Source: Desulfuromonadales bacterium (GTDB taxonomy: Bacteria; Desulfobacterota; Desulfuromonadia; Desulfuromonadales; JACZKF01). Taken from it: a stretch of 64,000 nt of DNA. The DNA is taken from contig JARFUG010000004.1 in assembly GCA_029289095.1 (NCBI GenBank), positions 13,250 through 77,249 of the forward strand. Reading direction: 5' to 3'. This document shows, in pieces, positions 1,892 through 63,192 of the stretch (position 1 is the stretch's first letter; each line of letters opens with the position of its first letter). The notes under the pieces were generated by a model. It searched no databases and had not been told where the DNA came from. It worked only from the letters and a program-made list of their open reading frames with translations. Made by a program: the position numbers and the translations under genes.

Positions 1892-1958
1892 CCTAGGTCC
1901 TGGGTTCCAGGTTGCAGGCTTTCTCCTGGCTTCTGGATTCCGGCTCCTGGCTCCTGCC
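1892..1958. repeat. Degenerate tandem heptamer tract (TGGCTCC / GGAGCCA type)
   Basis: cctaggt cctgggt tccaggt tgcaggc tttctcc tggcttc tggattc cggctcc tggctcc, between the kinase start and the accA stop. Confidence 0.7.
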
Positions 1959-1962
1959 TTAA

Positions 1963-2916
1963 CTATTCCGTCACCCGCGTCATGGCGCGGAACTTGTCGT
2001 ACCTTTGCACTACCAGTTCCTGGGGGGAGAGCTGCTTGAGTTCATAAAGATTCTTTTTCAAATACTTCTTGAGGTTGCGCGCCGCTTCGGCGTGGTCGTT
2101 GTGCGCTCCCCCCACCGGCTCGGGGACGACGTCGTCGATAACGCATCCCAGTGAAGCAATGTCCGACGCGGTCAGTTTGAGGGCATCGGCAGCGATCGAC
2201 CCCTTGGTGCCGTCGCTCCAGAGGATGGCGGCGCACCCTTCGGGGGAGATGACGGCATAGACCGAGTATTCCATCATCAGAACACGGTTGCCGACGGCGA
2301 TGGCCAGGGCGCCCCCCGAGCCCCCTTCGCCTGTAATGGTAACGATGATCGGAACACTCAGGGCAGCCATTTCGCGAAGGTTGCGGGCGATGGCTTCGGC
2401 CTGTCCCCTCTCCTCGGCGCCGATGCCGGGAAAAGCCCCGGGAGTGTCGACGAAGGTGAAGATCGGAAGACCGAACTGTTCGGCCATCTGCATCACCCGC
2501 AGGGCCTTGCGGTACCCTTCGGGATTGGGCATGCCGAAGTTTCGGTAGACCTTCTCCTTGGTGTCCCTCCCCTTCTGATGACCGATAATGCAGCACGGCT
2601 CACCGTCGAGACGGGCAAAGCCGCAGACGATGGCCGGATCGTCCCGGAAATTGCGGTCGCCGTGCACTTCGACCCAGTCGGTGAAGATCTCCCTCACAAA
2701 ATCGAGGGTGAAAGGACGGTTGATGTGACGGGCAAGCTGGGTGCGCTGCCAGCGCGAAAGGTTGGAGAAGATATCCTCGCGCAGCTTTTCGACCTTCTTC
2801 TCCAGCTTGCGTATATCCCCGGAAAAATCAACATTGTCGGTTGAATACTGCCGCAGTTCCCGGATCTTCTGCTCGAGTTCAGCGATCGGTTTTTCAAAGT
2901 CGAGAAAGAATTGCAT
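1963..2916 (-). CDS. accA: Acetyl-CoA carboxylase carboxyltransferase alpha subunit
   Basis: 317 aa. [15 protein letters not shown]..., [26 protein letters not shown] and [11 protein letters not shown] are diagnostic AccA blocks. Confidence 0.95.
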
Positions 2917-2933
2917 TTAGGACTCCTTTTTAT

Positions 2934-3008
2934 GAGGCGATAGGCAATGGGCCATGGGCGATAGGCTGGTTTACCCTGTTGCCTCGTGCCTATTGCCTCG
3001 TGCCTGCT
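2934..3008. repeat. Heptamer-built inverted repeat (TAGGCAA type)
   Basis: gaggcga taggcaa tgggcca tgggcga taggctg ... ctgttgc ctcgtgc ctattgc ctcgtgc. The arms are imperfect reverse complements, between the accA start and the dnaE stop. Confidence 0.7.
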
Positions 3009-6482
<3,474 letters not shown>

Positions 6483-6680
6483 ATAAAAGCAGGCTCGAGG
6501 CGCCAGAGCGATGGGCTCCAGGCTGAATTTTAATCACAGTAAAATATCGGCGGATGATACCACTGAGCAGAACAGAAGGTCAAGAAATCCGGATTAAGGA
6601 TAAGCGGCGGAAATGGAAAGCATTTTGGGTCCGGGGGTCATTTCTTGAGCCGAATGGACGCTATGGGACTCATGGAATTT

Positions 6681-7286
6681 TCATCTTTCATCCTTCATCC
6701 CTGAACCCAGCACCTCAACCCCGCAATGCCGCAGGAACTCGGTCAGCCGGATGAGCGGCAGACCGATGAGGCTGGTGTAATCGCTCCCCTGCATCCCCTG
6801 CATGAGGGCGATCCCGAGCCCCTCGATCTTGAACGATCCGGCGCAGTCGACGGGGTTTTCCCGCTCCACATAGGAACGGATTTCGGCGTCGGTGAGTGAA
6901 CGCAGCGTGACAGTGAAGGGGACGCAGTCCGAAAATGATTCGCCGGTGGCGGCGTCGATAAGGGCCACTCCCGTATAGAAGGTGTGGGTTCTGCCTGCCA
7001 TCGCCCGCAGTTGTTCAAAGGCCTTTTCAGGGGTCAGGGGCTTGCCCAGGATGCGACCACGATAGTCTACGAAAACCTGATCCGCGCCGATGATGAGCGC
7101 ATCGGGAAAATACTTCCGAAGAGATTCGGCTTTGTGGTAGGCGAGATGCTTGACCAGAAGCGAAGGCGCAACCCCCTGGTCGATTCTCTCCTCGAAGACC
7201 GGAGAAGCGGTGACAAAAGGGATCTGCAACTGCTGGAGGAGTTGCTTGCGGTAGGGGCTGGTCGAAGCGAGGACGATGGAACGCAT
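6681..7286 (-). CDS. maf: Maf-like nucleoside triphosphate pyrophosphatase (septum formation protein)
   Basis: ORF 6681..7331. ATG at 7286 (MRSIVLASTSPYRKQLL) has a GGAGG about 7 nt upstream and gives the canonical Maf N-terminus. GADQV and AGSFKIEG motifs present. Confidence 0.9.
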   Translation of the reverse strand: MRSIVLASTSPYRKQLLQQLQIPFVTASPVFEERIDQGVAPSLLVKHLAYHKAESLRKYFPDALIIGADQVFVDYRGRILGKPLTPEKAFEQLRAMAGRTHTFYTGVALIDAATGESFSDCVPFTVTLRSLTDAEIRSYVERENPVDCAGSFKIEGLGIALMQGMQGSDYTSLIGLPLIRLTEFLRHCGVEVLGSGMKDER

Positions 7287-7353
7287 GAAGGAACCTCCCG
7301 TGGATGGACGCTCCTTTATACTCTCGTACAATGGTTGAGGGCAAGAAGGGATA

Positions 7354-7420
7354 ATAGCAATTTTGAATGTTGAATGTTGAATTTTGAATTAAGGCGCCTG
7401 GCTCATGACTCCTGGCAAGT
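7354..7420. repeat. Heptamer tract (TTGAATN type, then GGCNCCT type)
   Basis: agcaattttgaatgttgaatgttgaattttgaatt followed by ggcgcct ggctcat gactcct ggcaagt. It shares a 21-nt exact block (ttgaatgttgaattttgaatt) with 43429..43527. Confidence 0.75.
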
Positions 7421-7504
7421 CGTCCGGGTTCGAGCTCGGTTTCAGGGGCGGCGGCGACCAAAAGGCCTGCTGCGCTTGCTCCATTTACCAGGCGGCAAAA
7501 TTTC

Positions 7505-8323: not shown

Positions 8324-8324
8324 C

Positions 8325-8549
8325 TCACCCTCCCCCGACGAGCGGAAAGAGCGCCAGGGTATCCCCTTCGCTCAGAGCGTGTTCGACACTGACATGTCGG
8401 CTGTTTACGAGGATGATCCCCAGTTCGTGCCTCGAGATGCCGAGTCCGTCGACGATTTCCCCTACCATTGTCCCTTCCGGGCACTCCCTGTCCTCGATCT
8501 CGAACCGATTGTTGCGGAATGTGGCAAAAAGCTTGACGGTCACCCTCAT
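8325..8549 (-). CDS. MoaD/ThiS-family ubiquitin-like sulfur-carrier protein (C-terminal GG)
   Basis: 74 aa, MRVTVKLFATFR...GDTLALFPLVGGG. Beta-grasp pattern with a terminal Gly-Gly. Overlaps the upstream ORF by 4 nt. Confidence 0.8.
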   Translation of the reverse strand: MRVTVKLFATFRNNRFEIEDRECPEGTMVGEIVDGLGISRHELGIILVNSRHVSVEHALSEGDTLALFPLVGGG

Positions 8550-9163: not shown

Positions 9164-9257
9164 TTTCCTCCTTCTCTCGAGATCCCCAATGATCGGAAAT
9201 CAATCAAATTCACAGAGATCAAGGAGATGCAGGGGGTCAAGATGTGTGCCGGTTTTT

Positions 9258-9287
9258 AACTCCTGGCTCCAACTCCTGACTCCTCGC
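9258..9287. repeat. Short heptamer tract (CCTGRCT type)
   Basis: aactcct ggctcca actcctg actcctc, next to the AOR terminator. Confidence 0.5.
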
Positions 9288-9288
9288 A

Positions 9289-9330
9289 GAAAAAGGGGGA
9301 GAAGCCCATCGGACTCCTCCCCCCTTTTTC
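9289..9330 (-). terminator. Rho-independent terminator after the AOR gene (bidirectional shape)
   Basis: aaaaaggggggaggagtccgatgggcttctccccctttttc on the minus strand. GC stem GGGGGAG/CTCCCCC is flanked by A- and T-runs. Confidence 0.75.
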
Positions 9331-9336
9331 AGCGGA

Positions 9337-11073
9337 TTACCAGTTGAAGACCTGATCCATCTCCTCATCGCTGACGGAGAATGTCTGGTTGTGCGGTGCG
9401 ATCGGGTCGGTGTAGAAGAAGCGCGGCAGGCGGTCGTGCTGAGCGGTGAAGCCGGCCCGCTTGTTGAAGTCGCGCTCTGCCGAGAGGACCTTCTTCCCGA
9501 GGGCCACGACATCGTCGCCGGTGAGGTTGGTACCGTAGAAAGCATTGAGCATGTCGAGCAGAGCCTGGAACGTTTCGGGCTGATCCATGATCGCGAAGGC
9601 GATGAAGAGGCACATGCCCGTGGAGTCGATGGCGGCCGTGGCGATCTGCAGATCGCGCGAGAGGGCTACCTGTCCCTCGGTCTTGAGAGGATCGACATCC
9701 CCGCCGACCTTCAGGATGTTGGTGGCGATGGCGTAGCCGGCGGTGTGGTCGGCGCCCTGAGTGCTGGTGGCGTAGGTGACGCCTATTCCCTGGATGGGGC
9801 GGGGGTCGTAGGCGGGGATCGCCTGCCCCTTGACGACGGGCACCTTCTCGACGCCGAAGACCTTGCCGGTAATCTCGGCCCCGCACCCGAGGATGCGCCC
9901 GAGGGGCGTTCCCTTGGCGACCTCTTCCACGAGGCGAATGGCGGCTGCGCCATCACCGAACTCGGCCAGGCCTGCGTCCATGGCAACGCCGATGGTCGCT
10001 CCCATCTCGATGGTGTCGACACCGATGTTGTCGTCCATATAATCAAGGCGGGCGATGACGTCGAGATCATCGATGCCGCAGTTGCCGCCGTGCGACCAGA
10101 CGGTCTCATACTCGGGCTGCTTGGTGACGTAGTTGCCTTCGGCGTCGTTGAAGATCCCGGAGCACTGGATGACGCAGCCGCGGTGGCAGCCGTGGGTGGC
10201 GCTGCCGCCGCGCTTGACCTCCAGCTCGGCCTGGGCCTCGCCGCTGATCTTGGCGCCGTTGGGGAAGACACCGGTCTTGAAGTTGTAGGTCGGATAGCCG
10301 CCGGCCTCGTTGAGAACGTTCGTGAGGACGTTGGTGCCGTAAGCGGGGAGCCCTTCGCCGGTGACGGGGTGCTTGCGCAGCCCTTCGACGAACTTGCGGT
10401 TGGCGTCGCGGTACTTCTCGGGATTCACGGGGGTACGGTGCTTCAGGCCGCTGTCATCGAGGATGATCGCCTTGACCTTCTTGGAACCCATGACGGCGCC
10501 GACGCCGCCGCGGCCGCAGTGCCGGGTGGGGCGAAGCTCGGGGTCGGTGCAGGCGATGGAAGCGGCAAGAAGCTGACGCTCACCGGCCGAACCGATGGTG
10601 ACGTAGGCAGGCTTGTCGCCGTACTCGCCGCGCAGCTTCTCGACCAGGGGATAGTTGTCGAGGAGCTTCAGGCTGTTGTCGACGGAGATCTTCACGCCGT
10701 CCTTGTTGATGAAGATCTTGTAGAGCTCGTCCCCTTCGGGCTTGCCTTCAAGGATAATCGCTGCATAGCCGAGGCGCGCAAGCACCTGGGCGGCCTGCCC
10801 GCCTGCATTGGACTCCTTGATGGTGCCGGTCAGGGGGCTCTTGCAGCCGACCGAGAGGCGGCCCGTCATGGCGCCGGTGGAGCCGCTCAGCATCCCCGGG
10901 GAGATGACGAGCTTGTTTTCCGCCCCAAGGGGATGGGCGAGCGGGTGCACTTCCTTGTTGACGATGAGGGAGGTCGTCGCTCTGCCCCCCAGTCCGAGGT
11001 ACTCGCCGACCGGTTCGGTCGTCATCTTCGGGCCGCCCTGGGCGCCCATGTCGATTCTGAGAATCTTGTCCAT
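9337..11073 (-). CDS. aor: Tungsten-type aldehyde:ferredoxin oxidoreductase (AOR family)
   Basis: Real start is MDKILRIDMGAQGG at 11073, with GGAG upstream. 578 aa carrying AOR N-terminal and catalytic-domain blocks (GGRATTSLIV, GLGYAAIILEG, CHRGCVIQC, TQGADHTAG). The 1009-aa ORF in the track is read-through into mftF in another frame. Confidence 0.93.
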   Translation of the reverse strand: MDKILRIDMGAQGGPKMTTEPVGEYLGLGGRATTSLIVNKEVHPLAHPLGAENKLVISPGMLSGSTGAMTGRLSVGCKSPLTGTIKESNAGGQAAQVLARLGYAAIILEGKPEGDELYKIFINKDGVKISVDNSLKLLDNYPLVEKLRGEYGDKPAYVTIGSAGERQLLAASIACTDPELRPTRHCGRGGVGAVMGSKKVKAIILDDSGLKHRTPVNPEKYRDANRKFVEGLRKHPVTGEGLPAYGTNVLTNVLNEAGGYPTYNFKTGVFPNGAKISGEAQAELEVKRGGSATHGCHRGCVIQCSGIFNDAEGNYVTKQPEYETVWSHGGNCGIDDLDVIARLDYMDDNIGVDTIEMGATIGVAMDAGLAEFGDGAAAIRLVEEVAKGTPLGRILGCGAEITGKVFGVEKVPVVKGQAIPAYDPRPIQGIGVTYATSTQGADHTAGYAIATNILKVGGDVDPLKTEGQVALSRDLQIATAAIDSTGMCLFIAFAIMDQPETFQALLDMLNAFYGTNLTGDDVVALGKKVLSAERDFNKRAGFTAQHDRLPRFFYTDPIAPHNQTFSVSDEEMDQVFNW

Positions 11074-11222
11074 TGCTTCTCCTTTTCCTTTCATCCAGTA
11101 GTGGATAGAAAAATCTCCTTTCCCCAGGGAGGCTCGACCGTTTCCCGTCGAACCCGGTGGCCGGGCGCCATGAGAGATGATCTCTTTTAGGCGCTCAGGC
11201 TCGGAGATGTGAACATGTCCTT

Positions 11223-12659
11223 TCAGAAAACAAGGGGCATGCGCCTTTGAAATTGAAGTCTGTAGCTGGCGAAGGTCCTCTGGGCCATGCAACCGCGAAA
11301 GACGCCGCTTCCGTACGCGAGGTGCTCCGAAAGATAGAAAAACAGAAATACGGCGGGATTCAGATCGGGACGGCGCACGTACCAATCCACGGCGGCAGGC
11401 CACAGCACAACGATAAGGAGTACGGGCCACGCGGCCGGCCATGTCAGTGCAAGAGCAATCAGCGGTACACCGTAATAGCGTACCAGATGGAAACCTAGGT
11501 AATAGACGAGACTCGCGAATGTTCGAACACGAGATGCGATCACCTGCAGAAAGCCGAGGGAAAAGCCCGGCCTTTTCGATTCCGACCGGATGACGACCGC
11601 GTCGGCAGCCAGAAGGATCGCCGCACCGAGAAACCAGCTCAGTCCCCCTGCGAGGAGGCCGACGACGCAACAGGCCAGGACGCCGCAAAGCAGCGGCGGG
11701 AATGCCATCTTCTTGCGCCGTTCGGGGTGGAGGGCCTGCAGGAGCCCCTCCGAGGTGCCGTATTCGAAGCGCCGCTTCAGAAAAGCCGGAAGATAGCTGC
11801 GGTGAGCATGCCAGACTCGTCCCTTCGGGCGATAGATGATACGAAAGCCGCCGTCGCGCAGACGCCAGGTCAGGTCGACGTCTTCGCCGACGTGCATCTC
11901 CGAGCGGAATCCGCCGACCCGTCTGAACGCGTCGCGACGCACCAGCAGGTTGCAGCTTGGCAGGTAGAAGGTGTCGTCCCCCCCCTGCCCGGAGCGTTCG
12001 TGCTTGCCGAGGCTGAGACTCGACATGACCGCTTCGTAGCGGTCGAGAGCCGAGGAGCGGTACATGCCGTCCACCAGTCCGCCGATCGCCGCCACCTCGG
12101 GATCGGCAAAGACGTCGATCAGCTCCCTCAGCCAGGGGACCGAGGCGGTGCAGTCTGAATCGATGAAGGCGAGAATCTCGCCTGTCGCCGCTTCGGCGCC
12201 GCGGTTGCGGGCCGCGGCCGGCCCCCTCCCACGCCCACCGGAGGGCAGGACCGTGGCCCCGAAAGCGCGGGCGACGTCGGCGCTGCCGTCGCTGCTGCCG
12301 TCGTCGACGACGATCACTTCCAGCAGCTCCGCAGGATAATCGATCAAGGAGAGGGAGGTGAGGCACTCGCGCAGCTCCTCTTCCCGGTCCTTAACAGGGA
12401 TCACGACGCTAACCCTCGGCAGGTCCGCGGAAGTCTGTTCAACCGCCCCGATCCGCTGCAGAAATCCGCGTTTGGCCAACTCCTCCAGGGCACGGGCCGC
12501 CCCCTCGGAAGCCGGAGAGAGAGGAGCCTCCGCCATCTGCCTCACCAGCGAGAGGAGCGCTCCGTTGAGTCGCACCATGCGCAGAGGACGGGGCGCCACG
12601 AGAAAGGTCCCCTCGGCCGACTCGCGGATGCTGATGTCGGAGGCGAGAGCGTAAGTCAT
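11223..12659 (-). CDS. mftF: Mycofactocin-system glycosyltransferase (GT2 core + C-terminal membrane domain)
   Basis: 478 aa. VSVVIPVKDREEEL...VVDDGSSDGS...IDSDC GT-A core, preceded by a ~90-aa N-domain and followed by multiple TM helices. This is the architecture of MftF, and the gene lies in the same strand block as mftABC. Confidence 0.85.
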   Translation of the reverse strand: MTYALASDISIRESAEGTFLVAPRPLRMVRLNGALLSLVRQMAEAPLSPASEGAARALEELAKRGFLQRIGAVEQTSADLPRVSVVIPVKDREEELRECLTSLSLIDYPAELLEVIVVDDGSSDGSADVARAFGATVLPSGGRGRGPAAARNRGAEAATGEILAFIDSDCTASVPWLRELIDVFADPEVAAIGGLVDGMYRSSALDRYEAVMSSLSLGKHERSGQGGDDTFYLPSCNLLVRRDAFRRVGGFRSEMHVGEDVDLTWRLRDGGFRIIYRPKGRVWHAHRSYLPAFLKRRFEYGTSEGLLQALHPERRKKMAFPPLLCGVLACCVVGLLAGGLSWFLGAAILLAADAVVIRSESKRPGFSLGFLQVIASRVRTFASLVYYLGFHLVRYYGVPLIALALTWPAAWPVLLIVVLWPAAVDWYVRRPDLNPAVFLFFYLSEHLAYGSGVFRGCMAQRTFASYRLQFQRRMPLVF

Positions 12660-13552
12660 CCCTGCGTCTCCGGGAGAAGGCCTTCGGCCTTGATGATCCT
12701 GAAAAGCCCGTCTGCGACGTCTTCAACCGAACCGGTGTGCATCTTCCCTTCCCGGGCCTTGATGCCGCCGGAGAGAAGCGCCAGAATCCGTTCATAGGCG
12801 GGAAGATTCGCATCCGGGGTCGTCACCCGCAGCGGGTTCGGACGGGGCAAGCCGTACTCGGCCTCTTGAAGCAAAGCCCCTGTTCCCCCGAGCTCCCAGA
12901 AGGGAAGACCGAGTTCCGGTAGCCCCCACGACTCCACCTTTCCCTCGACAGAGCGCATGAGCGCATCCTGACTTGGATAGCGAGGATCGCGAAGACCGTC
13001 CTCGAAGAAGACCGCGCAGGGGATTGAAGTCGCGACCTTGAGCCGGGCGCCCTTGTCTCCCTTGCGCAAAATCTCGAGTCCCCCCTCGAAACGGGCGAGG
13101 GAAAGGGCCGCCGTCACGTAGGGGATCCCTCTGGCGGCCGCAGCGACGGCAGGAGCGGGGTCGCTGCCCCGGTCGAGGAGGCGATTGCCGCAGAAGAAGA
13201 GATCGGGCTTGAGGATTTCGATCGCCCGGGAGAGGACCCTGGCCTCGGCCACCGCGTCGCCCCCCTTCAGACCCCCGTCCCAGATGCGGATGACACGGTC
13301 CGCCCCCATCGACAGGGCGAGGCGCAGGGAATCGTCGAGACGCTTCGGACCCACCGCCACGACCGTCACCTGAGCGCTCCCCGCATCGCGGAAGCCAAGC
13401 GCCTGCTCCAGCGCGCCGAGGTCCGCAGGGTTGGGGATCCGCCGCACCTCCTTGTCGCGAATTCCCGCACCCTTTTCCATCAGACGCACGGGGGTGCGGG
13501 GGTCGCAGACTTCACGGAGCAGGACGAGTATGTTGAGTTTGGAATTGGACAT
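12656..13552 (-). CDS. fixA: Electron transfer flavoprotein beta subunit (FixA/EtfB)
   Basis: ATG at 13552 (MSNSKLNILVLLREV). NPADLGALEQALGFRD and VTVVAVGP match EtfB blocks. About 298 aa, longer than typical EtfB. Overlaps mftF by 4 nt. Confidence 0.85.
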   Translation of the reverse strand: MSNSKLNILVLLREVCDPRTPVRLMEKGAGIRDKEVRRIPNPADLGALEQALGFRDAGSAQVTVVAVGPKRLDDSLRLALSMGADRVIRIWDGGLKGGDAVAEARVLSRAIEILKPDLFFCGNRLLDRGSDPAPAVAAAARGIPYVTAALSLARFEGGLEILRKGDKGARLKVATSIPCAVFFEDGLRDPRYPSQDALMRSVEGKVESWGLPELGLPFWELGGTGALLQEAEYGLPRPNPLRVTTPDANLPAYERILALLSGGIKAREGKMHTGSVEDVADGLFRIIKAEGLLPETQG

Positions 13553-24727: not shown

Positions 24728-24743
24728 ATGAAAACCTCGTGAT

Positions 24744-24822
24744 GGGTGAGGCGTCAGGAGTGAGGAGAAAAACCTTATTGGTGAAGAGAAAAGCTGTCTC
24801 CTTACTTCTCACTCCTCACCCG
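24744..24822. repeat. Heptamer-built hairpin (GAGGAGT type)
   Basis: gggtgaggcgtcaggagtgaggag ... ctccttacttctcactcctcaccc. Contains a 22-nt block identical (reverse orientation) to 30983..31004. Confidence 0.75.
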
Positions 24823-24823
24823 G

Positions 24824-24864
24824 AAAAAAGCTGGCCCCGGAAATGAACAACTCTCCGGGGCCGG
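24824..24864 (-). terminator. Rho-independent terminator of the alcohol dehydrogenase gene
   Basis: Minus strand gccggccccggagagttgttcatttccggggccagctttttt. Stem GGCCCCGG/CCGGGGCC followed by a T-run. Confidence 0.65.
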
Positions 24865-26441: not shown

Positions 26442-26454
26442 ATAAGGAATCAGG

Positions 26455-26628
26455 GCAATTTGAATTTTTGAATTCAGAGATTTGAATTTAAAGGCAAGAA
26501 CCCCCGTCCCGTAGCGCTGCACAGACAAGAGCCGATCGTGGTTGATGGCGCCGAAAGGTTGGATTTCCAGGTGATTTGCTTTTGCTCCAACAATTCAAAT
26601 TTAAAAAATCACAATTCAAAATTGCCTT
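26455..26628. repeat. Pair of inverted TTGAAT-type heptamer tracts flanking a ~95-bp spacer
   Basis: ggcaatttgaatttttgaattcagagatttgaattt (26455-26492) and caattcaaatttaaaaaatcacaattcaaaattgcc (26591-26627) are imperfect reverse complements. They sit just downstream of the ALDH stop. Confidence 0.65.
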
Positions 26629-28304: not shown

Positions 28305-28397
28305 CTCAAGGCGCAAAGTCCGCAAAGAAGAACCTCAGAACTTAGAAGGTTTTCTTTGCGCTCTTCGCGCCTTTGCGGTGAAACGGTTTTTTTCTCA
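28305..28397. repeat. Long imperfect hairpin ending GGTGAAAC + T-run, homologous to 59395..59478
   Basis: ggcgcaaagtccgcaaagaagaacc-loop-ggttttctttgcgctcttcgcgcc, then tttgcGGTGAAACggttttttt. Lies in the divergent ALDH/lpxA intergenic region. Confidence 0.6.
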
Positions 28398-30880: not shown

Positions 30881-31006
30881 GGTAGTGAGGTGTGAGGAGC
30901 AAAAAACCAGGATCCTTCGCTCCTTACGTTCGCCCATTATGGCATAACGGGCCGAATATTCCTAGGGGAAAAGGGTATTTCACTCCTCACTCCTGACGCC
31001 TCACGT
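30881..31006. repeat. Heptamer-built inverted arms (GAGGAGT type) spanning the ssrA-smpB spacer and the smpB stop
   Basis: ggtagtgaggtgtgaggagc ... cactcctcactcctgacgcctcac. The right arm contains the 22-nt block shared with 24746..24767 and covers the last 5 smpB codons. Confidence 0.7.
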
Positions 31007-31451
31007 CCTTGATCGCCTTGGCCACTTCCCGATCGGCTTCCTTGCGCTTGAGGGTCTCGCGCTTGTCATGGAGCTTTTTCCCCCGCGCCAGCCCGATTTC
31101 GAGCTTGGCCCGGTTGTTCTTGAAGTAGATCTTGGTCGGCACCAGCGAGAAGCCGCGCTCGTCGACCTTTCGGATCAGCTTGGCGATCTCTTCCCTGTGC
31201 AGCAAAAGCTTGCGCATCCGGGTCGGATCGGCGGGGTTCTCACGGTTGCCGTGCACGTAAGGGTTGATGTTCATGTTGTTGATGAACACTTCGCCGTCCT
31301 TGATGCGGCAGAACGCCTCCTTCAGATTGACCTTGCCGTCGCGAAGGGATTTCACCTCGGTGCCGGCCAGAACGATGCCCGCCTCGTAGACATCTTCGAT
31401 GAAATAGTCGTGATAGGCTTTTTTATTCGTTGCGATGATCTTAATGCCCAT
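30987..31451 (-). CDS. smpB: SsrA-binding protein
   Basis: 154 aa. [29 protein letters not shown] is a canonical SmpB N-terminus. Confidence 0.95.
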
Positions 31452-35936: not shown

Positions 35937-35966
35937 ATAATAAAGCTCTTAGCTCTTGGCCTGCTT

Positions 35967-36812: not shown

Positions 36813-37112
36813 CTCGGGCATGGGACGGTTTCCTTACCCTTCGCTATCGCCTCCCGTCCCGGTCCTCGTCGAATCCAGGCGGTATCTGTGAGTCGTTTTT
36901 TCTCTCCGGAAAACCGGCTCCGGTACGTGTTCCGGGCCCTCGGACGAGTCTGAAAAAACATCTAGCGTATACTATAATTTTTCAGAAAAATCCACAACAT
37001 TCTCCCGTATGATCCGGGTCGTCATTGCGTCCGGCAGGGTTGCACATCGAGCCGTACGCGCTATATCTATAAATGAAATGATTTTTCAGAAGTCATGCGA
37101 AAGGAGGTTCAC

Positions 37113-42609: not shown

Positions 42610-43428
42610 TTAAATAATAGAACCTCCATCGCCGGATAACAAGCGCCGCGCGCCCAGAGCCTGCGACAGACGGGCGAATTCTTCGAGGGTCAGCGTCTCG
42701 CCCCTGCGCCCCGGGTCGATGCCGTTGGCCGCCAGCACCTCATCGAGACCGTCTCCGAACCCGGCAGCGTTCAATGTGTTTCGAAGCGTTTTTCTGCGTT
42801 GGGCGAAAGCGCCCTTGACGACTTTCCGGAAAAAAGCCTCATCGTCGAGAGGAACCCGGGGGGCCTCCAGAGGTTCAAAGGCAAGGACAGCCGAGGTCAC
42901 TTTGGGGGGAGGATAGAAGGCGCCTGGAGGAACGATGGCGATGCGACGGATATCGAACCAGAGCCTGCAGAAGACCGACAGAATGCCGTAGTCCTTCGTG
43001 CCGGGGTCTGCGGCGAGACGGTCCGCCACCTCTTTCTGGAACATCAACACACAACGCCGGAAAAGGGCGCGGTGATCGAGAATCTGGAAGACGACCTGAC
43101 TGGAGATATTGTAGGGAAGATTCGCCACGAGAGTATAAGGGGGATTCGGCAGCAGATGCGGCCAGTCCATACAGAGGCAATCCCCCTCGTGGATGATCAG
43201 ACGGGGCTCTTTTCTGCTCTTGAGCCTCTCGACCAGGTCCCTGTCAACCTCCATGACATGCACCTCGGCGCTGCGATCGAGAAGGCGTCCGGTCAGAACC
43301 CCGAGTCCGGGCCCGATCTCCAAAACGCGGGAGTCCTCCTCCAGAGCGGCGGCGGCAAGAATACGATCGACCACACTCTGATCACGAAGAAAATTCTGGC
43401 CGAAACGCTTTTTGGGACGATAGGTCAT
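42610..43428 (-). CDS. rsmA: 16S rRNA (adenine1518/1519-N6)-dimethyltransferase
   Basis: 272 aa. KKRFGQNFL, EIGPGLGVLT and NLPYNISS motifs. Confidence 0.95.
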   Translation of the reverse strand: MTYRPKKRFGQNFLRDQSVVDRILAAAALEEDSRVLEIGPGLGVLTGRLLDRSAEVHVMEVDRDLVERLKSRKEPRLIIHEGDCLCMDWPHLLPNPPYTLVANLPYNISSQVVFQILDHRALFRRCVLMFQKEVADRLAADPGTKDYGILSVFCRLWFDIRRIAIVPPGAFYPPPKVTSAVLAFEPLEAPRVPLDDEAFFRKVVKGAFAQRRKTLRNTLNAAGFGDGLDEVLAANGIDPGRRGETLTLEEFARLSQALGARRLLSGDGGSII

Positions 43429-43527
43429 AAGGCAATTTTGAATTTTGAATGTTGAATTTTGAATTGAAACCCCAACCTTGAACCTTGAATCTTGAACCTT
43501 TGGCCTCGAGCCTCCGGCCTCGGATCT
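43429..43527. repeat. 99-bp intergenic region made entirely of drifting heptamers (TTGAATT to TTGAACC to TCGGCCT)
   Basis: aaggcaa ttttgaa ttttgaa tgttgaa ttttgaa ttgaaac cccaacc ttgaacc ttgaatc ttgaacc tttggcc tcgagcc tccggcc tcggatc. Starts directly after the rsmA start codon and ends at the DUF2062 stop. Confidence 0.8.
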
Positions 43528-45049: not shown

Positions 45050-45054
45050 GGGAT

Positions 45055-45145
45055 CCGGGAGTAAGGAGTTGGGAGCTGGTAGTCGGTAGTAAGGCAAGAG
45101 ACGAAGATCACAATGATCTCCCCACTCCCAACTCCCAGCTCCTGA
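45055..45145. repeat. Heptamer-built inverted arms (GGAGTTG type)
   Basis: ggagtaa ggagttg ggagctg gtagtcg gtagtaa ggcaaga ... ccccact cccaact cccagct cct, between the tsaD start and the phoH-like stop. Confidence 0.7.
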
Positions 45146-45146
45146 T

Positions 45147-46463
45147 TTAAAGAAGATTCGCCGCCAGTTCCGCCAGGGGGGAGCGCTCCCCTTTGTTCAG
45201 CGTGATGTGGCCGGAGATGGACTGTCCCTTGAACTTCTCCACCACGTAGGCGAGTCCGTTGCTGGACGAATCGACATAGGGATTGTCGATCTGGTACGGA
45301 TCGCCGGTAAGGACGATCTTGGTCCCTTCCCCCGCGCGGGTGATGATCGTCTTGATTTCATGGGGAGTGAGGTTCTGGGCCTCGTCGACGATCATGAACT
45401 GTTTGGGAATGGAACGCCCCCGGATATAGGTGAGAGGTTCGATCTCGAGCAGCCCCATATCGACCAGTTCGCGGTACCCCCGCTTGCGCCTTCCGCGCTC
45501 CTCCACCGCTCCGAGCAGAAGCTCGACGTTGTCGAAGATCGGCTGCATCCAGGGCGAGAGCTTCTCCTCCACGTCTCCGGGGAGAAATCCGAGATCGCGG
45601 CCCAGGGGGAAGATGGGGCGGGAGACGAGCAGGCGGCTGTATTTTCCTTCGTCGGCCGACTTGAAGAGCCCCGCCGCGATGGCCAGCAGCGTCTTGCCGG
45701 TGCCGGCCTTGCCGACCAGAGTGACGAGCTGGATCTCATCGTCAAGTAGCATGTCGAAGGCGAACTGCTGCTCCCGGCTGCGCGGGTGTATCCCCCAGAT
45801 CCCTTCCTTCGGGGCGCGGATGAGGGGAAGCATCTTCTGCTTCGCCTTGCTGAAACGGCCGATGGCGGTGTGGGATGGATTTGAGGCGTCGATGGCGGTA
45901 ATGTACTCGTTCGGATAGAGGTCCTCTTCGACGGGGATCTCTCCCTGCGAGTAGAAGGCGTTGACCGTCTCGGCCTTCACGACGATCTCCGTCGTCCCCG
46001 AGTAGAGCTCATCGATGGGAACCTTGTCGGAGGCATAGTCCTCGGCTACGAGACCGATGGCGTCCGCCTTGATGCGCAGATTGGTGTCCTTGGTCACGAA
46101 AATGACAGGACAGTCGCAGCGCTCCTTCAACTCCATCGCCACGGCAAGCATCCGATTGTCCCCCTGGTCGCCACGCAGTTCGGGAGGGAGGCGCTTCATC
46201 GCCTCCTCGGTATAGAGAACGACCCGCAAAAAGCCGCCCCCCTGCAGCTCCACTCCCTTCACCAGCGGGTTGTGTCTGCGCAGACCGTCGAGTATGCGAG
46301 AGACGTGGCGTGCGTTTCGGCCCGTTTCACTCTGGTCTTTCTTGAACCGATCGATCTCCTCGATAACCGTGATGGGAATGGCGAGATCGTTGTCCTGGAA
46401 CTGAAAGAGCGCTTGCGGATCGTGGAGCAGTACGTTTGTATCGAGGACGAACGTTTTCTTCAT
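45147..46463 (-). CDS. PIN-domain + PhoH-like ATPase (YlaK-type)
   Basis: 438 aa. N-terminal PIN (FVLDTNVLLHDP) and C-terminal PhoH P-loop LVGKAGTGKTLLA. Confidence 0.9.
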   Translation of the reverse strand: MKKTFVLDTNVLLHDPQALFQFQDNDLAIPITVIEEIDRFKKDQSETGRNARHVSRILDGLRRHNPLVKGVELQGGGFLRVVLYTEEAMKRLPPELRGDQGDNRMLAVAMELKERCDCPVIFVTKDTNLRIKADAIGLVAEDYASDKVPIDELYSGTTEIVVKAETVNAFYSQGEIPVEEDLYPNEYITAIDASNPSHTAIGRFSKAKQKMLPLIRAPKEGIWGIHPRSREQQFAFDMLLDDEIQLVTLVGKAGTGKTLLAIAAGLFKSADEGKYSRLLVSRPIFPLGRDLGFLPGDVEEKLSPWMQPIFDNVELLLGAVEERGRRKRGYRELVDMGLLEIEPLTYIRGRSIPKQFMIVDEAQNLTPHEIKTIITRAGEGTKIVLTGDPYQIDNPYVDSSSNGLAYVVEKFKGQSISGHITLNKGERSPLAELAANLL

Positions 46464-56081: not shown

Positions 56082-56149
56082 AACTCCGCCTCGACCGATG
56101 ATAGTAATATAGCGTGCATTCTTCTTTCCGCCTGCCGAAGGGATCTCCG

Positions 56150-56959: not shown

Positions 56960-56964
56960 ACGAA

Positions 56965-57651: not shown

Positions 57652-57652
57652 G

Positions 57653-57720
57653 GGCAGAATTCAGAATTCAGGAGCCAGAAGCCAGGAGCAGGAGCCAGGA
57701 GCCAAGAACCGGGAGCAGAG
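57653..57720. repeat. Heptamer tract (GCCAGGA type)
   Basis: ggcagaa ttcagaa ttcagga gccagaa gccagga gcaggag ccaggag ccaagaa ccgggag. Starts 2 nt upstream of the bpt ATG. Confidence 0.75.
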
Positions 57721-57778
57721 ATGTATCCTGTGGCGGCCTTTATGCTAAATTGATAGAAACTGTTCGGGATATCTTCGC

Positions 57779-58411: not shown

Positions 58412-58424
58412 TGGGAGTACCGAC

Positions 58425-59063: not shown

Positions 59064-59326
59064 AGATCCGAAAGGAGCAGATCGATTGGGAATCTCTCTG
59101 CAGGCGCTGTGGGGAGTGCTGCTTCGAGAAATGGATTGAAGATGACGGTACGATCATTCCCACCGGCGTCGCCTGCCGCCATCTCGACATCGTCACCAGG
59201 GAGTGCAGGGTGTACCACAAGCGTTTCGACGTCGGCGAAGACTGCGTCCTCCTCACCCCGGAGGTGGTCAGCAGCGTCCGGTGGCTTCCGGATACATGCG
59301 GATACGTCCGACACTTGAAGGAGTAA
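59060..59326 (+). CDS. YkgJ-family Cys-cluster protein (CxxCxxCC)
   Basis: 88 aa. CRRCGECCFEKW motif. ATGA overlap with the upstream NUDIX gene. Confidence 0.7.
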   Translation: MKIRKEQIDWESLCRRCGECCFEKWIEDDGTIIPTGVACRHLDIVTRECRVYHKRFDVGEDCVLLTPEVVSSVRWLPDTCGYVRHLKE

Positions 59327-59336
59327 GACGCAAAGT

Positions 59337-59478
59337 TTTACAATTCAAAATACAAAATTCAAAATTGATGGTCTCGCAATTCAAAATCTACCGCCGAGAC
59401 ACCAAGACACAAAGAGAACCTATTGATTCAAAAAGATTTTCTTGGTGCACTTGGTGTCTTGGTGGTGAAACAATGCTT
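59337..59478. repeat. AATTCAA-type heptamer tract followed by the CACCAAG-type hairpin ending GGTGAAAC
   Basis: caattcaaaatacaaaattcaaaattgatgg...caattcaaaat, then gagacaccaagacacaaagagaacc-loop-ttttcttggtgcacttggtgtcttggtGGTGAAAC. Confidence 0.7.
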
Positions 59479-59503
59479 TTTGCATTGATCTTCAGAGGTA
59501 TTC

Positions 59504-60295: not shown

Positions 60296-60334
60296 TTCCT
60301 GCATGATCTCAGCAGGAACTTGTCCATGCTTGAT

Positions 60335-60643
60335 TCAAACCGGCAGCTTCAGAGTCTTCCTCGTCTCGAAGTCGAGGATCGCTCCGGCAAGCCCGTAGAC
60401 GATCTCCTCCGGATTCCTCCCCCCTTCCCACCAAGTCAGGTCGAGCTGCCACGCCTCCCCCTCCCATCCGCGGATGACGGCCCCGAAGGGATCGCTAAGC
60501 TCACCAAGGACGGTGCGTATCTCGGCGCAGAGAAAGGCGTTCAGTTCTCCATCGAGCACAGCTCCAGGCTGCGTCCCCCGGTGAGCGAAACGGCGACGGG
60601 TCTGCTGCGCGATCTGCGCCACCAGTTCGGCACGATCATTCAT
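60335..60643 (-). CDS. Hypothetical protein
   Basis: 102 aa from the ATG at 60643 (GGAGG 6 nt upstream). No recognisable family. Confidence 0.45.
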   Translation of the reverse strand: MNDRAELVAQIAQQTRRRFAHRGTQPGAVLDGELNAFLCAEIRTVLGELSDPFGAVIRGWEGEAWQLDLTWWEGGRNPEEIVYGLAGAILDFETRKTLKLPV

Positions 60644-60747
60644 GACGCCTCCTGTGGATATTGTAACGGTTTGTTCTGGTGTCCCGTGCGGCAAGGGACG
60701 CCGGTGCACTAACCGGGTGCTCCTCTGGACCGGAAACGCTTTTTAAA

Positions 60748-60840
60748 CTCCCCTCCCTTGATGGGAGGGACAGGGGGAGGGTAAGCTTGAGCCCCCCTCT
60801 CCCCAACCCTCTCCCACGGAGGGGAGAGGGGGCTGGTGGG
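60748..60840. repeat. G/C-homopolymer-rich double hairpin (REP-like)
   Basis: ctcccctccc ttgat gggaggga cagggggaggg ... gcccccctctccccaaccctctcccacggaggggagagggggc. Confidence 0.55.
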
Positions 60841-60863
60841 CGGACCGTTCCCACCCTCGGATG

Positions 60864-61772
60864 CTAAATCAGCTCCCCAGGCAGGTGCAGGAGAAACGGA
60901 CGAAAATCGTGCGGCAGCGGCGCGACGATCGAGATCTCTTCTGCGCTTTCAGGGTGGTGAAATCGCAACCGTCGCGCGTGCAGCAGATACCGGCCGGCGC
61001 TCAGCGCTTCGCCCCCGATCCGCACCCCCGCCGGACCACCGTAGAGAGTGTCGCCCACAATAGGATATCCCTCACCCGCGAGATGGGCGCGGATCTGGTG
61101 GGTTCGGCCGGTCCGCGGGCAGGCTTCCACCAGGGAGAACCCTGCGCCCCGCCCCAACGTGCGGAAATCGGTGTGCGCCTCCTGCCCTCTTCCCTCTGCA
61201 GCGACCGTACGCCCACGGACACCCGCCAGAAGCCGGTTGCGAACCGAAAAATCCTCTGGAGGAAAACCGGCGACCAGGGCGAGATAGTCCTTGGAAACCT
61301 CTCTCTGTGCAAACTGTCGGGCCATCTCGCGATTGGCCGTCTCCGAGAGGGCGAAGAGGAGGACGCCGGAGGTGTCGGCGTCGAGGCGATGCAGGAGGAT
61401 CGGCATCGAACTCCCCTGCATCGGTTTCACCAGGTCGAGAACGCTGGGATGACCCGGCGCGGCGGGGTGGACGGCAAGCCCCGCCGGCTTGTCGAGCGCC
61501 AGGAGGTGGGGATCGCGAAAAAGGATGACCCCCTCGGAGATTTCCGGAGTGGGAGGCGCCCCCTCCAGGGTGACGGTGATCGTCTCTTCCCCGGAGAGAA
61601 GGCGTCCGGCGCGCCTTTCGACACGGCCGTCGAGAAAAACCCTTCCGCCATCGAGAGCCCGCTTGATCGCCTTGCGGGAAACGTCGGGCAGAGAATGCAC
61701 CATGAAGAGATCGAGACGCACTCCGCGAGCGGCCCGATCGGTCACGATCGTCTCGCGCCGGGTCCGACTCAT
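60864..61772 (-). CDS. RluA-family pseudouridine synthase (S4 domain + catalytic domain)
   Basis: ATG at 61772 forms an ATGA overlap with the mtaB stop. HRLDADTSGVLLFA catalytic Asp motif. Confidence 0.9.
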   Translation of the reverse strand: MSRTRRETIVTDRAARGVRLDLFMVHSLPDVSRKAIKRALDGGRVFLDGRVERRAGRLLSGEETITVTLEGAPPTPEISEGVILFRDPHLLALDKPAGLAVHPAAPGHPSVLDLVKPMQGSSMPILLHRLDADTSGVLLFALSETANREMARQFAQREVSKDYLALVAGFPPEDFSVRNRLLAGVRGRTVAAEGRGQEAHTDFRTLGRGAGFSLVEACPRTGRTHQIRAHLAGEGYPIVGDTLYGGPAGVRIGGEALSAGRYLLHARRLRFHHPESAEEISIVAPLPHDFRPFLLHLPGELI

Positions 61773-63046
61773 AGGCGCTCTCCGAAAAGTCCCTTCGGCG
61801 TCCATTTTCTGATGAGAACCCTGGACGTTCGCCCCGGATCTCCATCGTCCGGAAAGCGGATCGTCAGGTAGTTGCGGGTCAGTCCGCGCCGCTCCCCTGC
61901 GTCCCTGCCTCCCTCCACGACCACCTCGACGTCCTGTCCGATGAACCCTTTGGCAAACGCGCGTTCTTTCGCTTCTCCGAGAGCACGCAGGCGGGAGGCG
62001 CGGCGCCGAATCTGCTCTGGAGGGACCTGCCCGCTCATCTGGGCAGCGGGGGTTCCGGGGCGTCGACTGAAGGGGAAGACGTGCAGATGCGTGACCGGCA
62101 ACGCCTCGATAAGTCGGAAGGTATTTTCGAATTGGGCATCGGTTTCGCCGGGAAAGCCGGCGATCACGTCGAGGCCGATGGCCGCATCGGGAAGACGCCA
62201 GCGGATGTCGTGCACAAGATCGGCGAAAAAACCGGCGGTATAGGTCCGGTTCATGGCTCGCAGAATGTCGTCGTCACCCGACTGCAGGGGGATGTGGAAA
62301 TGCGGGCAGATGACCTCGGAGAACGCCACGGCCTCGATCAACTCGGATGAGATTTCCGTCGGTTCGATCGAACCCAGCCGCAGACGCTTCACATCCGTCT
62401 GCGCCTCGAGCTGCCGCAGGAGGGAGAGAAGTGACTGCGGCGGCTGCAGGTCCGAGCCGTACCCGCCGATGTGGATTCCTGTCAGGACGATTTCGGGATA
62501 CCCCCCTTCGACGAGATGTCGAACCTGCTCCACAATTTCGGTGGTGGGAACCGATCGGCTCCGGCCGCGGGCGTAAGGGATGATGCAATAGGCGCAGAAG
62601 GCGTCGCAGCCGTTCTGGATCTGAACGAAGGCGCGGCTGCGCTCGGTGAAGACGGAGATGGAAGGAACCGCAGCGACTTCCGTAAGGCGGATGTCCGAGA
62701 CCCGCGTCCCCTCCTCGGCGAGAAGCACCAGAAGATCGCGTTTCTCTTCGTTGCCGATGACGAGGGAGACGCCGGGGATGGCCGAAAGGGAGGCGGGGTC
62801 GATCTGGGCGTAACAGCCGGTCACCACCACCCGGCAGGAGGCGTTGAGACGCCGTGCCCTACGAATGAGCTTGCGCGACTCGGCATCGGTGGCCGCCGTG
62901 ACGGTGCAGGTGTTCACGATCACAAGGTCCGCCCCCGCCTCGAAAGGGACCTGAGAATATCCGGCCCCCTGAAGACGCTCCTCCATGGCGGCCGATTCGA
63001 ACTGGTTCGTCTTGCATCCGAGGGTGGCTATTGAGAAGGTTTTCAA
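61769..63046 (-). CDS. mtaB: tRNA (t6A37) methylthiotransferase, radical SAM
   Basis: 425 aa. IATLGCKTNQFES N-terminus and CDAFCAYC radical-SAM motif. The apparent start is TTG with no obvious SD, so start confidence is lower. Confidence 0.88.
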   Translation of the reverse strand: MKTFSIATLGCKTNQFESAAMEERLQGAGYSQVPFEAGADLVIVNTCTVTAATDAESRKLIRRARRLNASCRVVVTGCYAQIDPASLSAIPGVSLVIGNEEKRDLLVLLAEEGTRVSDIRLTEVAAVPSISVFTERSRAFVQIQNGCDAFCAYCIIPYARGRSRSVPTTEIVEQVRHLVEGGYPEIVLTGIHIGGYGSDLQPPQSLLSLLRQLEAQTDVKRLRLGSIEPTEISSELIEAVAFSEVICPHFHIPLQSGDDDILRAMNRTYTAGFFADLVHDIRWRLPDAAIGLDVIAGFPGETDAQFENTFRLIEALPVTHLHVFPFSRRPGTPAAQMSGQVPPEQIRRRASRLRALGEAKERAFAKGFIGQDVEVVVEGGRDAGERRGLTRNYLTIRFPDDGDPGRTSRVLIRKWTPKGLFGERL

Positions 63047-63192
63047 GGCAGTATCCAGGAGCCGGGAGCCAGGAGCCAGAAGAAAACCAAGAACTTCTGT
63101 TCAAGTCCTGATCTCGGTGTTTCGAAAGAGGAATGGTTTCTTGTCACGATTTTTAGCCCTTACTCCTGGATTCTGGCTCCTGCTTTCTCTAT
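63047..63192. repeat. Inverted GGAGCCA-type heptamer arms flanking a ~65-bp spacer
   Basis: ggcagta tccagga gccggga gccagga gccagaa ... ttactcc tggattc tggctcc tgc. The right arm overlaps the mnmA stop. Confidence 0.7.

Follow-up and report, generated by a model that had tools for sequence, protein, structure and literature searches.

Tandem heptanucleotide repeats between the genes of an uncultured Desulfuromonadales bacterium and the purine-first order of their inverted pairs

What are the degenerate tandem 7-mers that occupy so many intergenic spacers in one stretch of bacterial DNA, and how might they have come to lie there? The stretch, called the window here (64,000 nucleotides [nt]; positions 13,250 to 77,249 of contig JARFUG010000004.1, assembly GCA_029289095.1), comes from a marine-sediment metagenome and belongs to an uncultured bacterium of the order Desulfuromonadales, with a DnaE that is 76 to 83% identical to DnaE of Desulfuromonadales metagenome-assembled genomes (MAGs) labelled Trichloromonas, Geoalkalibacter, and Desulfuromonas. 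A preliminary description made from the sequence alone had reported pervasive heptanucleotide-periodic tracts, had left undecided whether they were known in this lineage, and had named the cyanobacterial short tandemly repeated repetitive (STRR) sequences as the nearest analogue, which proved the right choice. The repeats belong with the tandem heptanucleotide repeats of the long simple sequence repeat (LSSR) and STRR kind, of which they are a dense example and not a new kind of element, and the class is already described for the lineage in Geobacter genome papers (PMC2700814, PMC2996986). For this genome, our statements on arrays cover the 64-kb window plus 2.5 kb. The same arrays are present in an independent NCBI MAG (GCA_030604755.1) and in Logan contigs, two assemblies of the same population, and therefore are not an assembly artefact.

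The period of 7 nt stands out by several measures. A lag-k self-match scan of the window (21-nt windows, threshold of ≥16 matches in 21) returned 14 regions at lag 7 and 5 at lag 14, with 0 to 4 at every other lag, and the mean for lag 7 in 30 dinucleotide-preserving shuffles was 0.17 regions; the excess over both shuffles and other lags bears out the constant 7-nt period. Twelve of the 14 regions are non-coding, in about 11% of the window, whereas every hit at lags 3, 6, and 12 falls in coding sequence. Autocorrelation of the non-coding DNA peaks at lag 7 (0.294 versus ∼0.262), with echoes at 14 and 21, and coding DNA has period 3 only. Tandem Repeats Finder gave period-7 arrays of 2.4 to 7 copies, and arrays were present in 15 of the 34 intergenic spacers of ≥30 nt. 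At least three head-to-tail copies above chance, confined to non-coding DNA and present at many dispersed loci, are what characterizes LSSR/STRR-like repeats, and the arrays share these properties. Of the 13 coordinates first proposed for such tracts, Tandem Repeats Finder has period-7 calls at or beside each except 28305, where the hairpin is strong and the 7-nt periodicity weak enough to be missed by the lag-7 scan, and 26591; at 26455 it calls period 8. Further arrays, absent from that first list, lie at 35937 to 35966, 43474 to 43500, and 59397/59440. The elements of the window are as follows.

1884 to 1962, minus strand: fills the 79-nt spacer from the accA stop to the pfkB start (Tandem Repeats Finder and lag-7 scan); minus strand reads TTAAGGCAG GAGCCAG GAGCCGG AATCCAG AAGCCAG GAG..., then CCTGGAA-type heptads; RNA fold z of −1.0; 85% identity over 41 nt with 63045 to 63085.
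2917 to 3008, no strand assigned: spacer from the dnaE stop to the accA start; GAGGCAA/TAGGCAC heptad hairpin with arms at 2932 to 2968 and 2975 to 3008; fold z of −2.6; arm purine fraction 0.68, then 0.26.
6672 to 6715, minus strand: (GATGAAG)x3, forming the last codons of maf.
7352 to 7425, minus strand: single composite array in one phase; minus strand reads GGAGTCA TGAGCCA GGCGCCT, then TAATTCA AAATTCA ACATTCA ACATTCA AAATTGC; less structured than shuffles (z of +1.7).
9255 to 9285, minus strand: single array of four heptads, GAGGAGT CAGGAGT TGGAGCC AGGAGTT, located 3′ of a separate terminator-like hairpin.
24738 to 24821, no strand assigned: GTGAGGA-type heptad hairpin (arms 24738 to 24768 and 24794 to 24821) between a canonical terminator at 24833 to 24862 and the ribosome-binding site of an AAA ATPase gene; fold z of −4.0; purine fraction 0.74, then 0.14.
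26453 to 26628, no strand assigned: a 100-nt core flanked by two TTTTGAA arms in inverted orientation, both with GGCAA at the end; the stop of an aldehyde dehydrogenase gene (TAA TAAGGCAATTTTGAATT) adjoins the outer end.
28305 to 28375, no strand assigned: hairpin upstream of lpxA in a divergent region, with GCAAAG-type units of weak 7-nt period; fold z of −5.6.
30881 to 31009, no strand assigned: inverted GTGAGGA arms (30881 to 30899 and 30977 to 31009) across the smpB-tmRNA spacer, the distal arm 30977 to 31009 providing the last 6 codons of smpB; fold z of −3.8; 19/19 match with 24749 to 24767.
35937 to 35966, minus strand: mini-array reading AAAGCAG GCCAAGA GCTAAGA GC on the minus strand.
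43429 to 43527, minus strand: ∼13 contiguous heptads in one phase, filling the gap from the DUF2062 gene stop to the ksgA start; units drift from GAGGCCG through AAGGTTC to AATTCAA and end TTGCCTT|ATG at ksgA; unstructured (z of +1.4).
45053 to 45147, no strand assigned: GGGAGTT heptad hairpin filling the gap from the phoH stop to the tsaD start; fold z of −4.3; purine fraction 0.72, then 0.26.
57652 to 57722, plus strand: two tandem elements, each RGCAG plus ∼4 heptads, abutting the ate start in a divergent region (GGCAG AATTCAG AATTCAG GAGCCAG AAGCCAG GAG / CAG GAGCCAG GAGCCAA GAACCGG GAGCAG); unpaired and unstructured on both strands.
59335 to 59373, plus strand: single AATTCAA array (Tandem Repeats Finder and lag-7 scan).
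59390 to 59470, no strand assigned: CACCAAG-type hairpin upstream of a GDPD gene, with arms at 59397 to 59415 and 59440 to 59464 that have period 8 in Tandem Repeats Finder and are absent from the lag-7 scan; the stretch 59335 to 59470 folds with z of −5.1.
63046 to 63187, no strand assigned: inverted GAGCCAG arms (63046 to 63087 and 63158 to 63187) with GGCAG/AGCAG at the outer ends, spanning from the upstream gene's stop to the TTG start of a methylthiotransferase gene; fold z of −1.45.

Three of these sites have features of their own. Just upstream of dnaE, two Trichloromonas MAGs (L001 and L019) share a conserved hairpin, CAGGGA(T/C)GAAAGGGA(T/C)AAACAGGATA ... CATCCCTG, and its resemblance to the (GATGAAG)x3 that ends the maf gene of the window hints at an older shared element at the maf-dnaE junction. 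The terminator-like hairpin and T run at about 9290 to 9330 were read from the sequence and are absent from the terminator scan listing; the hairpin at 9294 to 9328, after the gene ending at 9337, takes about 12 of the 24 differences from an assembly 99.74% identical to the window (L516), a local hotspot that may mark a replaced or compensated stem. The core at 26490 to 26590, between the TTTTGAA arms, holds CGTAGCGCTGC and GCGCCATC, has no Rfam model match, and is weakly similar to the 24-copy "short RNA" family of Geobacter metallireducens, with the central palindrome GRCGTAGCGCTGCTACGCC.

All unit types of the preliminary description were found in the window, and several types do occur, but rather than each locus having its own unit, a small number of families are shared among loci: GAGCCAG/AATCCAG/AATTCAG is found at six, TTTTGAA also at six, and GTGAGGA at two, alongside several singletons, with a best match of 33/34 identical nucleotides (43432 to 43465 and 7357 to 7390). 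Similarity between intergenic loci is limited to the arrays and their end motif, and the loops are unrelated. The basic element is a degenerate outer heptad (A/G-GCA-A/G) followed by about 4 to 5 units, ∼30 to 40 nt in all, and elements occur singly, in tandem, or as inverted pairs 6 to 180 nt apart. The RGGCAR anchor proposed for the tracts is real, and 6 of the 23 AAGGCAR occurrences in the window lie at array edges, but it does not behave as a separate component: across a large external set, ..AG-R-A-K is kept and YC lost in the unit that adjoins the matched block on the outside, so that the anchor is best read as a degenerate outermost heptad. Two arrays, at 43429 to 43527 and 7352 to 7425, drift from one unit type to another without leaving phase.

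Two inverted arms, expected at most loci, were found in about 9 of 16 elements, the rest being single direct arrays. The inverted pairs (class A) fold into long hairpins, with z values of −2.6 to −5.6 relative to shuffles in six folded regions and weaker folding in two pairs (1884 to 1962 and 63047 to 63190). The single direct arrays (class B; 7332 to 7425, 43429 to 43527, and 57652 to 57725) are less structured than 186 to 195 of 200 shuffles. Sense transcripts fold no better than antisense transcripts, and no G-U signature of RNA-level selection was seen in this comparison.

As had been described, the tracts lie between genes and directly adjoin stop and start codons, and several occupy an entire stop-to-start gap, most clearly at 43429 to 43527. 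They run into the last codons of maf (6672 to 6715) and smpB (30977 to 31009), although not into those of the last gene, labelled mnmA, where the array starts 4 nt past the stop. Four genes, ksgA, tsaD, ate, and the methylthiotransferase gene (43428, 45052, 57651, and 63046), start right after an array without a recognisable Shine-Dalgarno sequence; their start codons are probably right, because the predicted N-termini match conserved family N-termini. Only 22 of 53 window genes have a Shine-Dalgarno sequence by these crude gene starts, so its absence beside arrays is not significant. Weak −35/−10-like matches given by AATTCAA arrays (7380 to 7351 and 59315 to 59365) were not taken as evidence. 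The genes that flank arrays are ordinary housekeeping genes (pfkB, accA, dnaE, maf, thiF, smpB and tmRNA, ksgA, tsaD, phoH, ate, lpxA, and others), and the gene annotation of the window gave no shared functional or regulon theme among them. The sole transcriptome of the source sample had no reads or contigs matching the window, and metatranscriptome contigs matching the Geomonas loci hold just 5 to 9% of those loci's words.

In inverted pairs the purine-rich arm comes first and the pyrimidine-rich arm second, about 54:0 overall, where ∼38 of the 54 pairs come from a fixed pattern or a published table and the rest from reading of the arms or from purine content. The tally comprises 17:0 in metagenome loci, 13:0 in viral loci, 9 pairs in the window (by purine content, one being a near-tie), 8 in G. 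metallireducens, and 7 in other unit families. A purine-then-pyrimidine arrangement reads the same on both strands, and arm order was for this reason dropped as a polarity relative to transcription. Avoidance of Rho through masking of a C-rich arm was also considered; two findings weaken it, namely that C outnumbers G in the first arm of the 59397/59440 pair and that pairs in loci called convergent keep to the rule. Such pairs, in 8 metagenome loci called convergent, are likewise purine-first (the metagenome spacer contexts are from crude gene calls). Because translation of a downstream gene or Rho polarity cannot select the order at convergent loci, a polarity in how the pairs are generated is favoured, and from these pairs we infer a process such as fold-back copying from the purine-rich strand.

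The elements follow stop codons, and few are located in divergent promoter regions. Their metagenome contexts were 30 tandem, 8 convergent, and 1 divergent spacers. Among the spacers of the window, 13 of the 21 tandem and 2 of the 7 divergent ones contain an element, and none of the 6 convergent ones does. In viral contigs, orientation showed no bias with respect to the upstream open reading frame (ORF; 27 versus 27).

The closest described counterpart is in G. metallireducens, of a related lineage (Desulfuromonadales/Geobacterales), where tandem repeats of 7, 8, and 9 nt, arranged as variably spaced inverted pairs, were put forward as sites of an integration host factor (IHF)/HU-type "global regulator" and where a 49-copy family has four heptanucleotide repeats (Aklujkar et al. 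2009, PMC2700814). The class 3 alignment in that work has CTCCTGA/ATTCTGA five times (consensus MTYCTGA) in pairs 75 to 115 bp apart, some beside TGCCTTT (PMC2700814). The window elements at 57652 to 57722, 63046 to 63187, and 1884 to 1962 are of the same family and have the same purine-then-pyrimidine order. The reverse complement of 57652 to 57722 reads ...CTCCTGA ATTCTGA ATTCTGC, in keeping with the roughly five MTYCTGA units of class 3, and the arms at 63158 and 1923 (CTCCTGG/TTCTGGC) are one transition from its consensus. The pairs 63046 to 63087/63158 to 63187 and 1890 to 1920/1923 to 1960 also have the class 3 arrangement, opposite strands with the 5′ ends of the pyrimidine strands inward. 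Class 3 differs in having been annotated by BLAST families in supplementary files, with IHF/HU binding proposed for it, whereas the window has more unit families, phase-continuous composite arrays, and arrays that directly adjoin start and stop codons; the anchor is mostly on the outer side in the window, and several G. metallireducens sites have it on the inner side. In Geobacter bemidjiensis, 12% of intergenic regions hold direct repeats of 6 to 42 nt (PMC2996986).

Similarities extend to repeats in other phyla. Nostoc PCC 7120 has (TTTTGAA)3-4 within 100 nt of the starts or promoters of 21 genes, and deletion of heptamer repeats altered reporter output in Nostoc. STRR and Nostoc heptamers resemble the window repeats in occupying many intergenic sites with several families per genome, and TTTTGAA/TTCAAAA is identical to the commonest AT-rich family of the window. 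The canonical STRR units are CCCCAGT, TTGGTCA, and CAACAGT; none of them occurs among the window arrays and the host is one of the Desulfuromonadales, so these are not STRR proper. To our knowledge, inverted purine-then-pyrimidine pairing is not described for STRR. In the account of Mrazek et al. (2007) given in PMC4679880, heptanucleotides are the top class in most genomes rich in 5- to 11-nt repeats, non-triplet units are restricted to non-coding DNA, and polymerase slippage with a 7-nt footprint is proposed. LSSR are statistically long homogeneous runs, whereas the window arrays are short (3 to 6 units), degenerate, and arranged in dispersed families and oriented inverted pairs; the LSSR preference for period 7 is reproduced here in 78 dnaE loci (see below). 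The TAACTGA repeats of marine Beggiatoaceae, cyanobacteria, and Bacteroidetes occur in sets of 2 to 6 copies (169 direct sets and one indirect) a few nucleotides from start codons, with Shine-Dalgarno sequences rare alongside and no functional theme downstream, and S1, Csp, and CsrA are the proposed binders (MacGregor 2015, PMC4679880). The 7-nt unit, the cross-phylum spread, and the absence of a theme are common to both sets, but TAACTGA is a single unit type pointing to the start codon, whereas the window has many types, half of its elements are inverted pairs, and the purine arms come mostly after stops.

Other classes of intergenic repeat fit less well. Repetitive extragenic palindromes (REPs) and their composites, bacterial interspersed mosaic elements (BIMEs) and REPINs, are alike in being ∼35-nt extragenic families, single or in inverted-pair hairpins, located in transcribed spacers at gene 3′ ends, lineage-specific, and quick to turn over. 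A REP is itself imperfectly palindromic, carries a conserved GTAG head, and owes its mobility to a RAYT transposase. The window arms, in contrast, are direct heptad arrays without internal pairing, their single arms being less structured than shuffles as given above; GTAG was not seen at array ends, where the motif is RGCAR, and no transposase was found among the 20 Pfam-scanned genes of the ∼53 in the window. On the folding of single arms, the earlier judgement that these are not REPs stands. They are not miniature inverted-repeat transposable elements either, since terminal inverted repeats are present (for example, 26453 to 26628), but loops and cores are unshared and there is no flanking duplication. 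Nor do they resemble conventional intrinsic terminators, again as first proposed: loops are 6 to 130 nt versus 3 to 8 nt, the arms are read without a following T run, and terminator scans over positions 1 to 60000, a range with the element at 63046 to 63187 outside it, list no array. None of the arrays had a match in Rfam 15, even at E values up to 1; only a tmRNA, a molybdenum cofactor (Moco) riboswitch, and a pan motif reach their gathering thresholds.

Arrays of this kind are not limited to the window and occur in other genomes as well as in metagenome and viral contigs. Among 80 dnaE-centred loci from other genomes, scanned by the same lag method, only two had a comparable density, namely L011, which is the closest long relative, and L014, a Geobacter MAG; arrays were sparser in Geomonas, Hydrosulfovibrio, and some Nitrospirota, and most of the loci had none. 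Period 7 is the favoured non-triplet period in the 78 unrelated dnaE loci (1.35 Mb, not selected for repeats), with 25 regions at lag 7 versus 3 to 7 at lags 4, 5, 8, 10, and 11. Array density is ∼219/Mb in the window versus ∼18/Mb in these loci, roughly 12 times higher. At the orthologous spacers (maf-dnaE, dnaE-accA, and downstream of accA), arrays occur only in the window and L011, and their units differ, so that turnover must be fast; both arrays downstream of accA open with TAAGGCAG.

Two near-identical assemblies, at 99.93% and 99.74% identity to the window, were compared over ∼30 kb; the metagenome contigs are too fragmentary for strain variation. Arrays and elements carry 7 of the ∼38 differences counted over the two assemblies together, the core of 26453 to 26628 has 2 of the 14 differences from one near-identical assembly (L081), and at 35960 a 1-nt indel leaves the sister assembly with a perfect (GGCTCTT)x3.

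A wider scan used a degenerate pattern of 3.5 units of YCAGRAK. It matched at least 120 contigs in JGI metagenomes (GC content of 35 to 72%) and at least 120 IMG/VR viral contigs; in the viral set, a mirror-order control matched 43 contigs and the same motif at an 8-nt period 30. The matches listed in a 6-nt-period control scan were compatible with coding repeats. One viral contig, L243 (IMGVR_UViG_3300014656_000076), has more than 10 long TCAGGAG/TCAGAAG arrays between about 1100 and 7300, all on one strand; at least four of them end within ∼30 nt of an ATG, and the contig would make a good natural test bed for a translational role. Across the metagenome and IMG/VR loci (L083 to L162 and L203 to L282), nineteen arrays share the 5′ flank ATCCAAT and 18 share AAGTAGG on the 3′ side, which suggests that a single repeated element recurs through a group of related contigs.

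The explanation that we favour, with a probability of about 40%, is that the arrays are slippage-born, copy-dispersed repeats that form intercistronic hairpins or unstructured spacers, a lineage-amplified set of the LSSR/STRR/Geobacter kind. Arrays would arise and stay homogeneous by slipped-strand mispairing, with a general preference for a 7-nt step, and template switching or gene conversion would carry copies of them to further intergenic sites. Pairs would come from fold-back copying of a purine-rich strand, fixing the purine-then-pyrimidine order, and arrays would survive only where promoters and coding sequence stay intact. Their transcripts would contain long stem-loops or unstructured purine- or A-rich spacers, and intercistronic mRNA stability and translation initiation would probably be altered as a side effect and not as a dedicated regulon. 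Slippage and copying are indicated by the period-7 bias, the in-phase drift of units, the fast turnover, the lack of a gene theme and of a sense-folding advantage, and the sharing of arms but not loops.

Several observations weigh against this account. Slippage, one of the origins suggested in the preliminary description, is not seen as a simple ongoing process: in at least six arrays across 30 kb of 99.7 to 99.9% identical sequence there were point changes but no gain or loss of units. Element size is rather uniform at ∼4 to 5 units, and the account would need a mechanism both for the 7-nt step and for the fold-back polarity. TCAGGAG, TCAGAAT, TCAGAAG, and TTTTGAA recur in genomes of 27 to 72% GC and are at least 3 times as common as a mirror-order control, and this cross-phylum recurrence of unit variants fits better with a conserved factor that recognises them, or with horizontal spread, than with neutral drift. 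Among the 69 arrays far from contig ends, a sense ORF of ≥80 codons ends 0 to 44 nt upstream of the purine array in 35, against 14 in the mirror control, and such placement after stop codons hints at a positional function.

A possible but less probable alternative is that the arrays are platforms for an oligomeric nucleic-acid-binding protein that reads a short motif every 7 nt on DNA or RNA. Both modes have precedents: the omega repressor, a ribbon-helix-helix protein, binds 7-bp heptad arrays on DNA, and HutP binds UAG-N4 repeats on RNA. Candidates on DNA would be omega-like proteins or the IHF/HU-type regulators proposed for Geobacter, and on RNA HutP-like proteins, CsrA, Csp, or S1; in pairs, a protein on the purine arm would be in competition with the hairpin, and the downstream cistron would be controlled through this competition. 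Besides the uniform size, conservation within units is position-specific, with ..AG-R-A-K kept even in the otherwise unconstrained outermost unit, and the consensus YCAGRAK is common to the MAG of the window, G. metallireducens, and soil, peat, marine, and viral contigs; the Nostoc reporter result and the array-abutted, Shine-Dalgarno-free starts of ksgA, tsaD, ate, and the methylthiotransferase gene, which parallel those beside TAACTGA repeats, can be read in the same way. Set against this, at least eight unrelated families in 64 kb (GAGCCAG, TTTTGAA, GTGAGGA, GGGAGTT, GAGGCAA, AAGGTTC, CACCAAG, and GATGAAG) would each need a reader of their own, the neighbouring genes have no functional theme, arrays are not conserved at orthologous sites, and starts without Shine-Dalgarno sequences are common across the window. 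In a far-reaching variant, which we regard as quite improbable, YCAG-RAK and its sister families (TTTTGAA, for example) would amount to a "heptad code" that extends across phyla, and its reader would be an oligomeric factor with 7-nt register that is either conserved or has spread horizontally; pairing would act as a switchable hairpin or as a bidirectional terminator free of U tracts. If true, such a code would govern expression at hundreds of junctions between cistrons, in phages as well as in bacteria.

Readings that centre on the hairpin or on mobility seem to us unlikely, the second even more so than the first. Paired elements could act as RNA stem-loops in a REP-like role, as U-tract-independent bidirectional terminators, pause sites, or 3′-end stabilisers. 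During transcription of the 3′ arm the r(pyrimidine)-d(purine) hybrid would be of the weakest class, an argument drawn from established nucleic-acid thermodynamics, so that the hairpin could strip the transcript from either direction; the strand-symmetric arm order fits such two-way action, as the six strong folds and the position past gene 3′ ends fit a role at transcript ends. Two further pairs fold weakly, though, and single arrays could not work in this way at all. Where the scans apply, no element has the properties of an intrinsic terminator, and separate terminator-like hairpins adjoin two elements (24833 to 24862, from the scan, and ∼9290 to 9330). Convergent spacers of the window are free of arrays, apparent operons of essential genes (dnaE-accA, for instance) contain several elements, and sense folding has no advantage over antisense folding. 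Alternatively, the arms could be non-autonomous mobile units of ∼35 to 40 nt, copied in trans by a dedicated enzyme like REP/REPIN with RAYT or like the small dispersed repeats of Nostoc, which would explain both the patchy distribution among genomes and the presence in viral contigs. Near-identical arms do recur at unlinked loci, including variant positions and flanks (ATAA-GGCAATTTTGAAT at 43424, 7349, and 26633), each element has a defined outer end motif, and the fixed orientation in pairs recalls terminal inverted repeats. The window, L011, L014, and G. metallireducens have many of the elements, most relatives have none, and Geobacter sulfurreducens is reported to lack them; at least 120 viral or proviral contigs carry them, and two insertion sequence families of G. 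metallireducens insert at a fixed distance from related paired sites. But a transposase or RAYT-like gene was missing from the Pfam-scanned part of the window, target-site duplications were not seen, copies vary in the number and order of units, loops are unrelated, and single arms offer no hairpin to an HUH-type enzyme; arrays that grade in phase into other unit types suggest growth in place.

Three further features of the window concern RNA elements. A Moco/tungsten riboswitch (11099 to 11218, minus strand; Rfam, 68 bits) lies within the mechanical ORF 9337 to 12366, so that this ORF must in fact comprise two genes separated by a leader under riboswitch control. A pan motif at 36850 to 36938 (minus strand) scores 36.2 bits, exactly its gathering threshold, and the call is supported by panB/panC (pantoate transferase and ligase; Pfam marks on L081) downstream. 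Between convergent genes, the hairpin at 60760 to 60817 is not built of heptads and is probably an ordinary bidirectional terminator; it gave a chance mir-185 match of 34.5 bits, compared with a gathering score of 60.

Tandem heptanucleotide repeats have been on record for 35 years in cyanobacteria and since 2007 to 2015 in many other bacteria. What is added here is the purine-first rule in inverted pairs, the families of units shared across phyla and with viruses, and the placement after stop codons. For annotation, the consequence is that heptad tracts are not to be called terminators, REPs, or small-RNA genes by default. Together, the purine-first rule, the shared unit families, and the post-stop placement make the old question of the origin and function of these repeats testable in cultured G. 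metallireducens or Nostoc.

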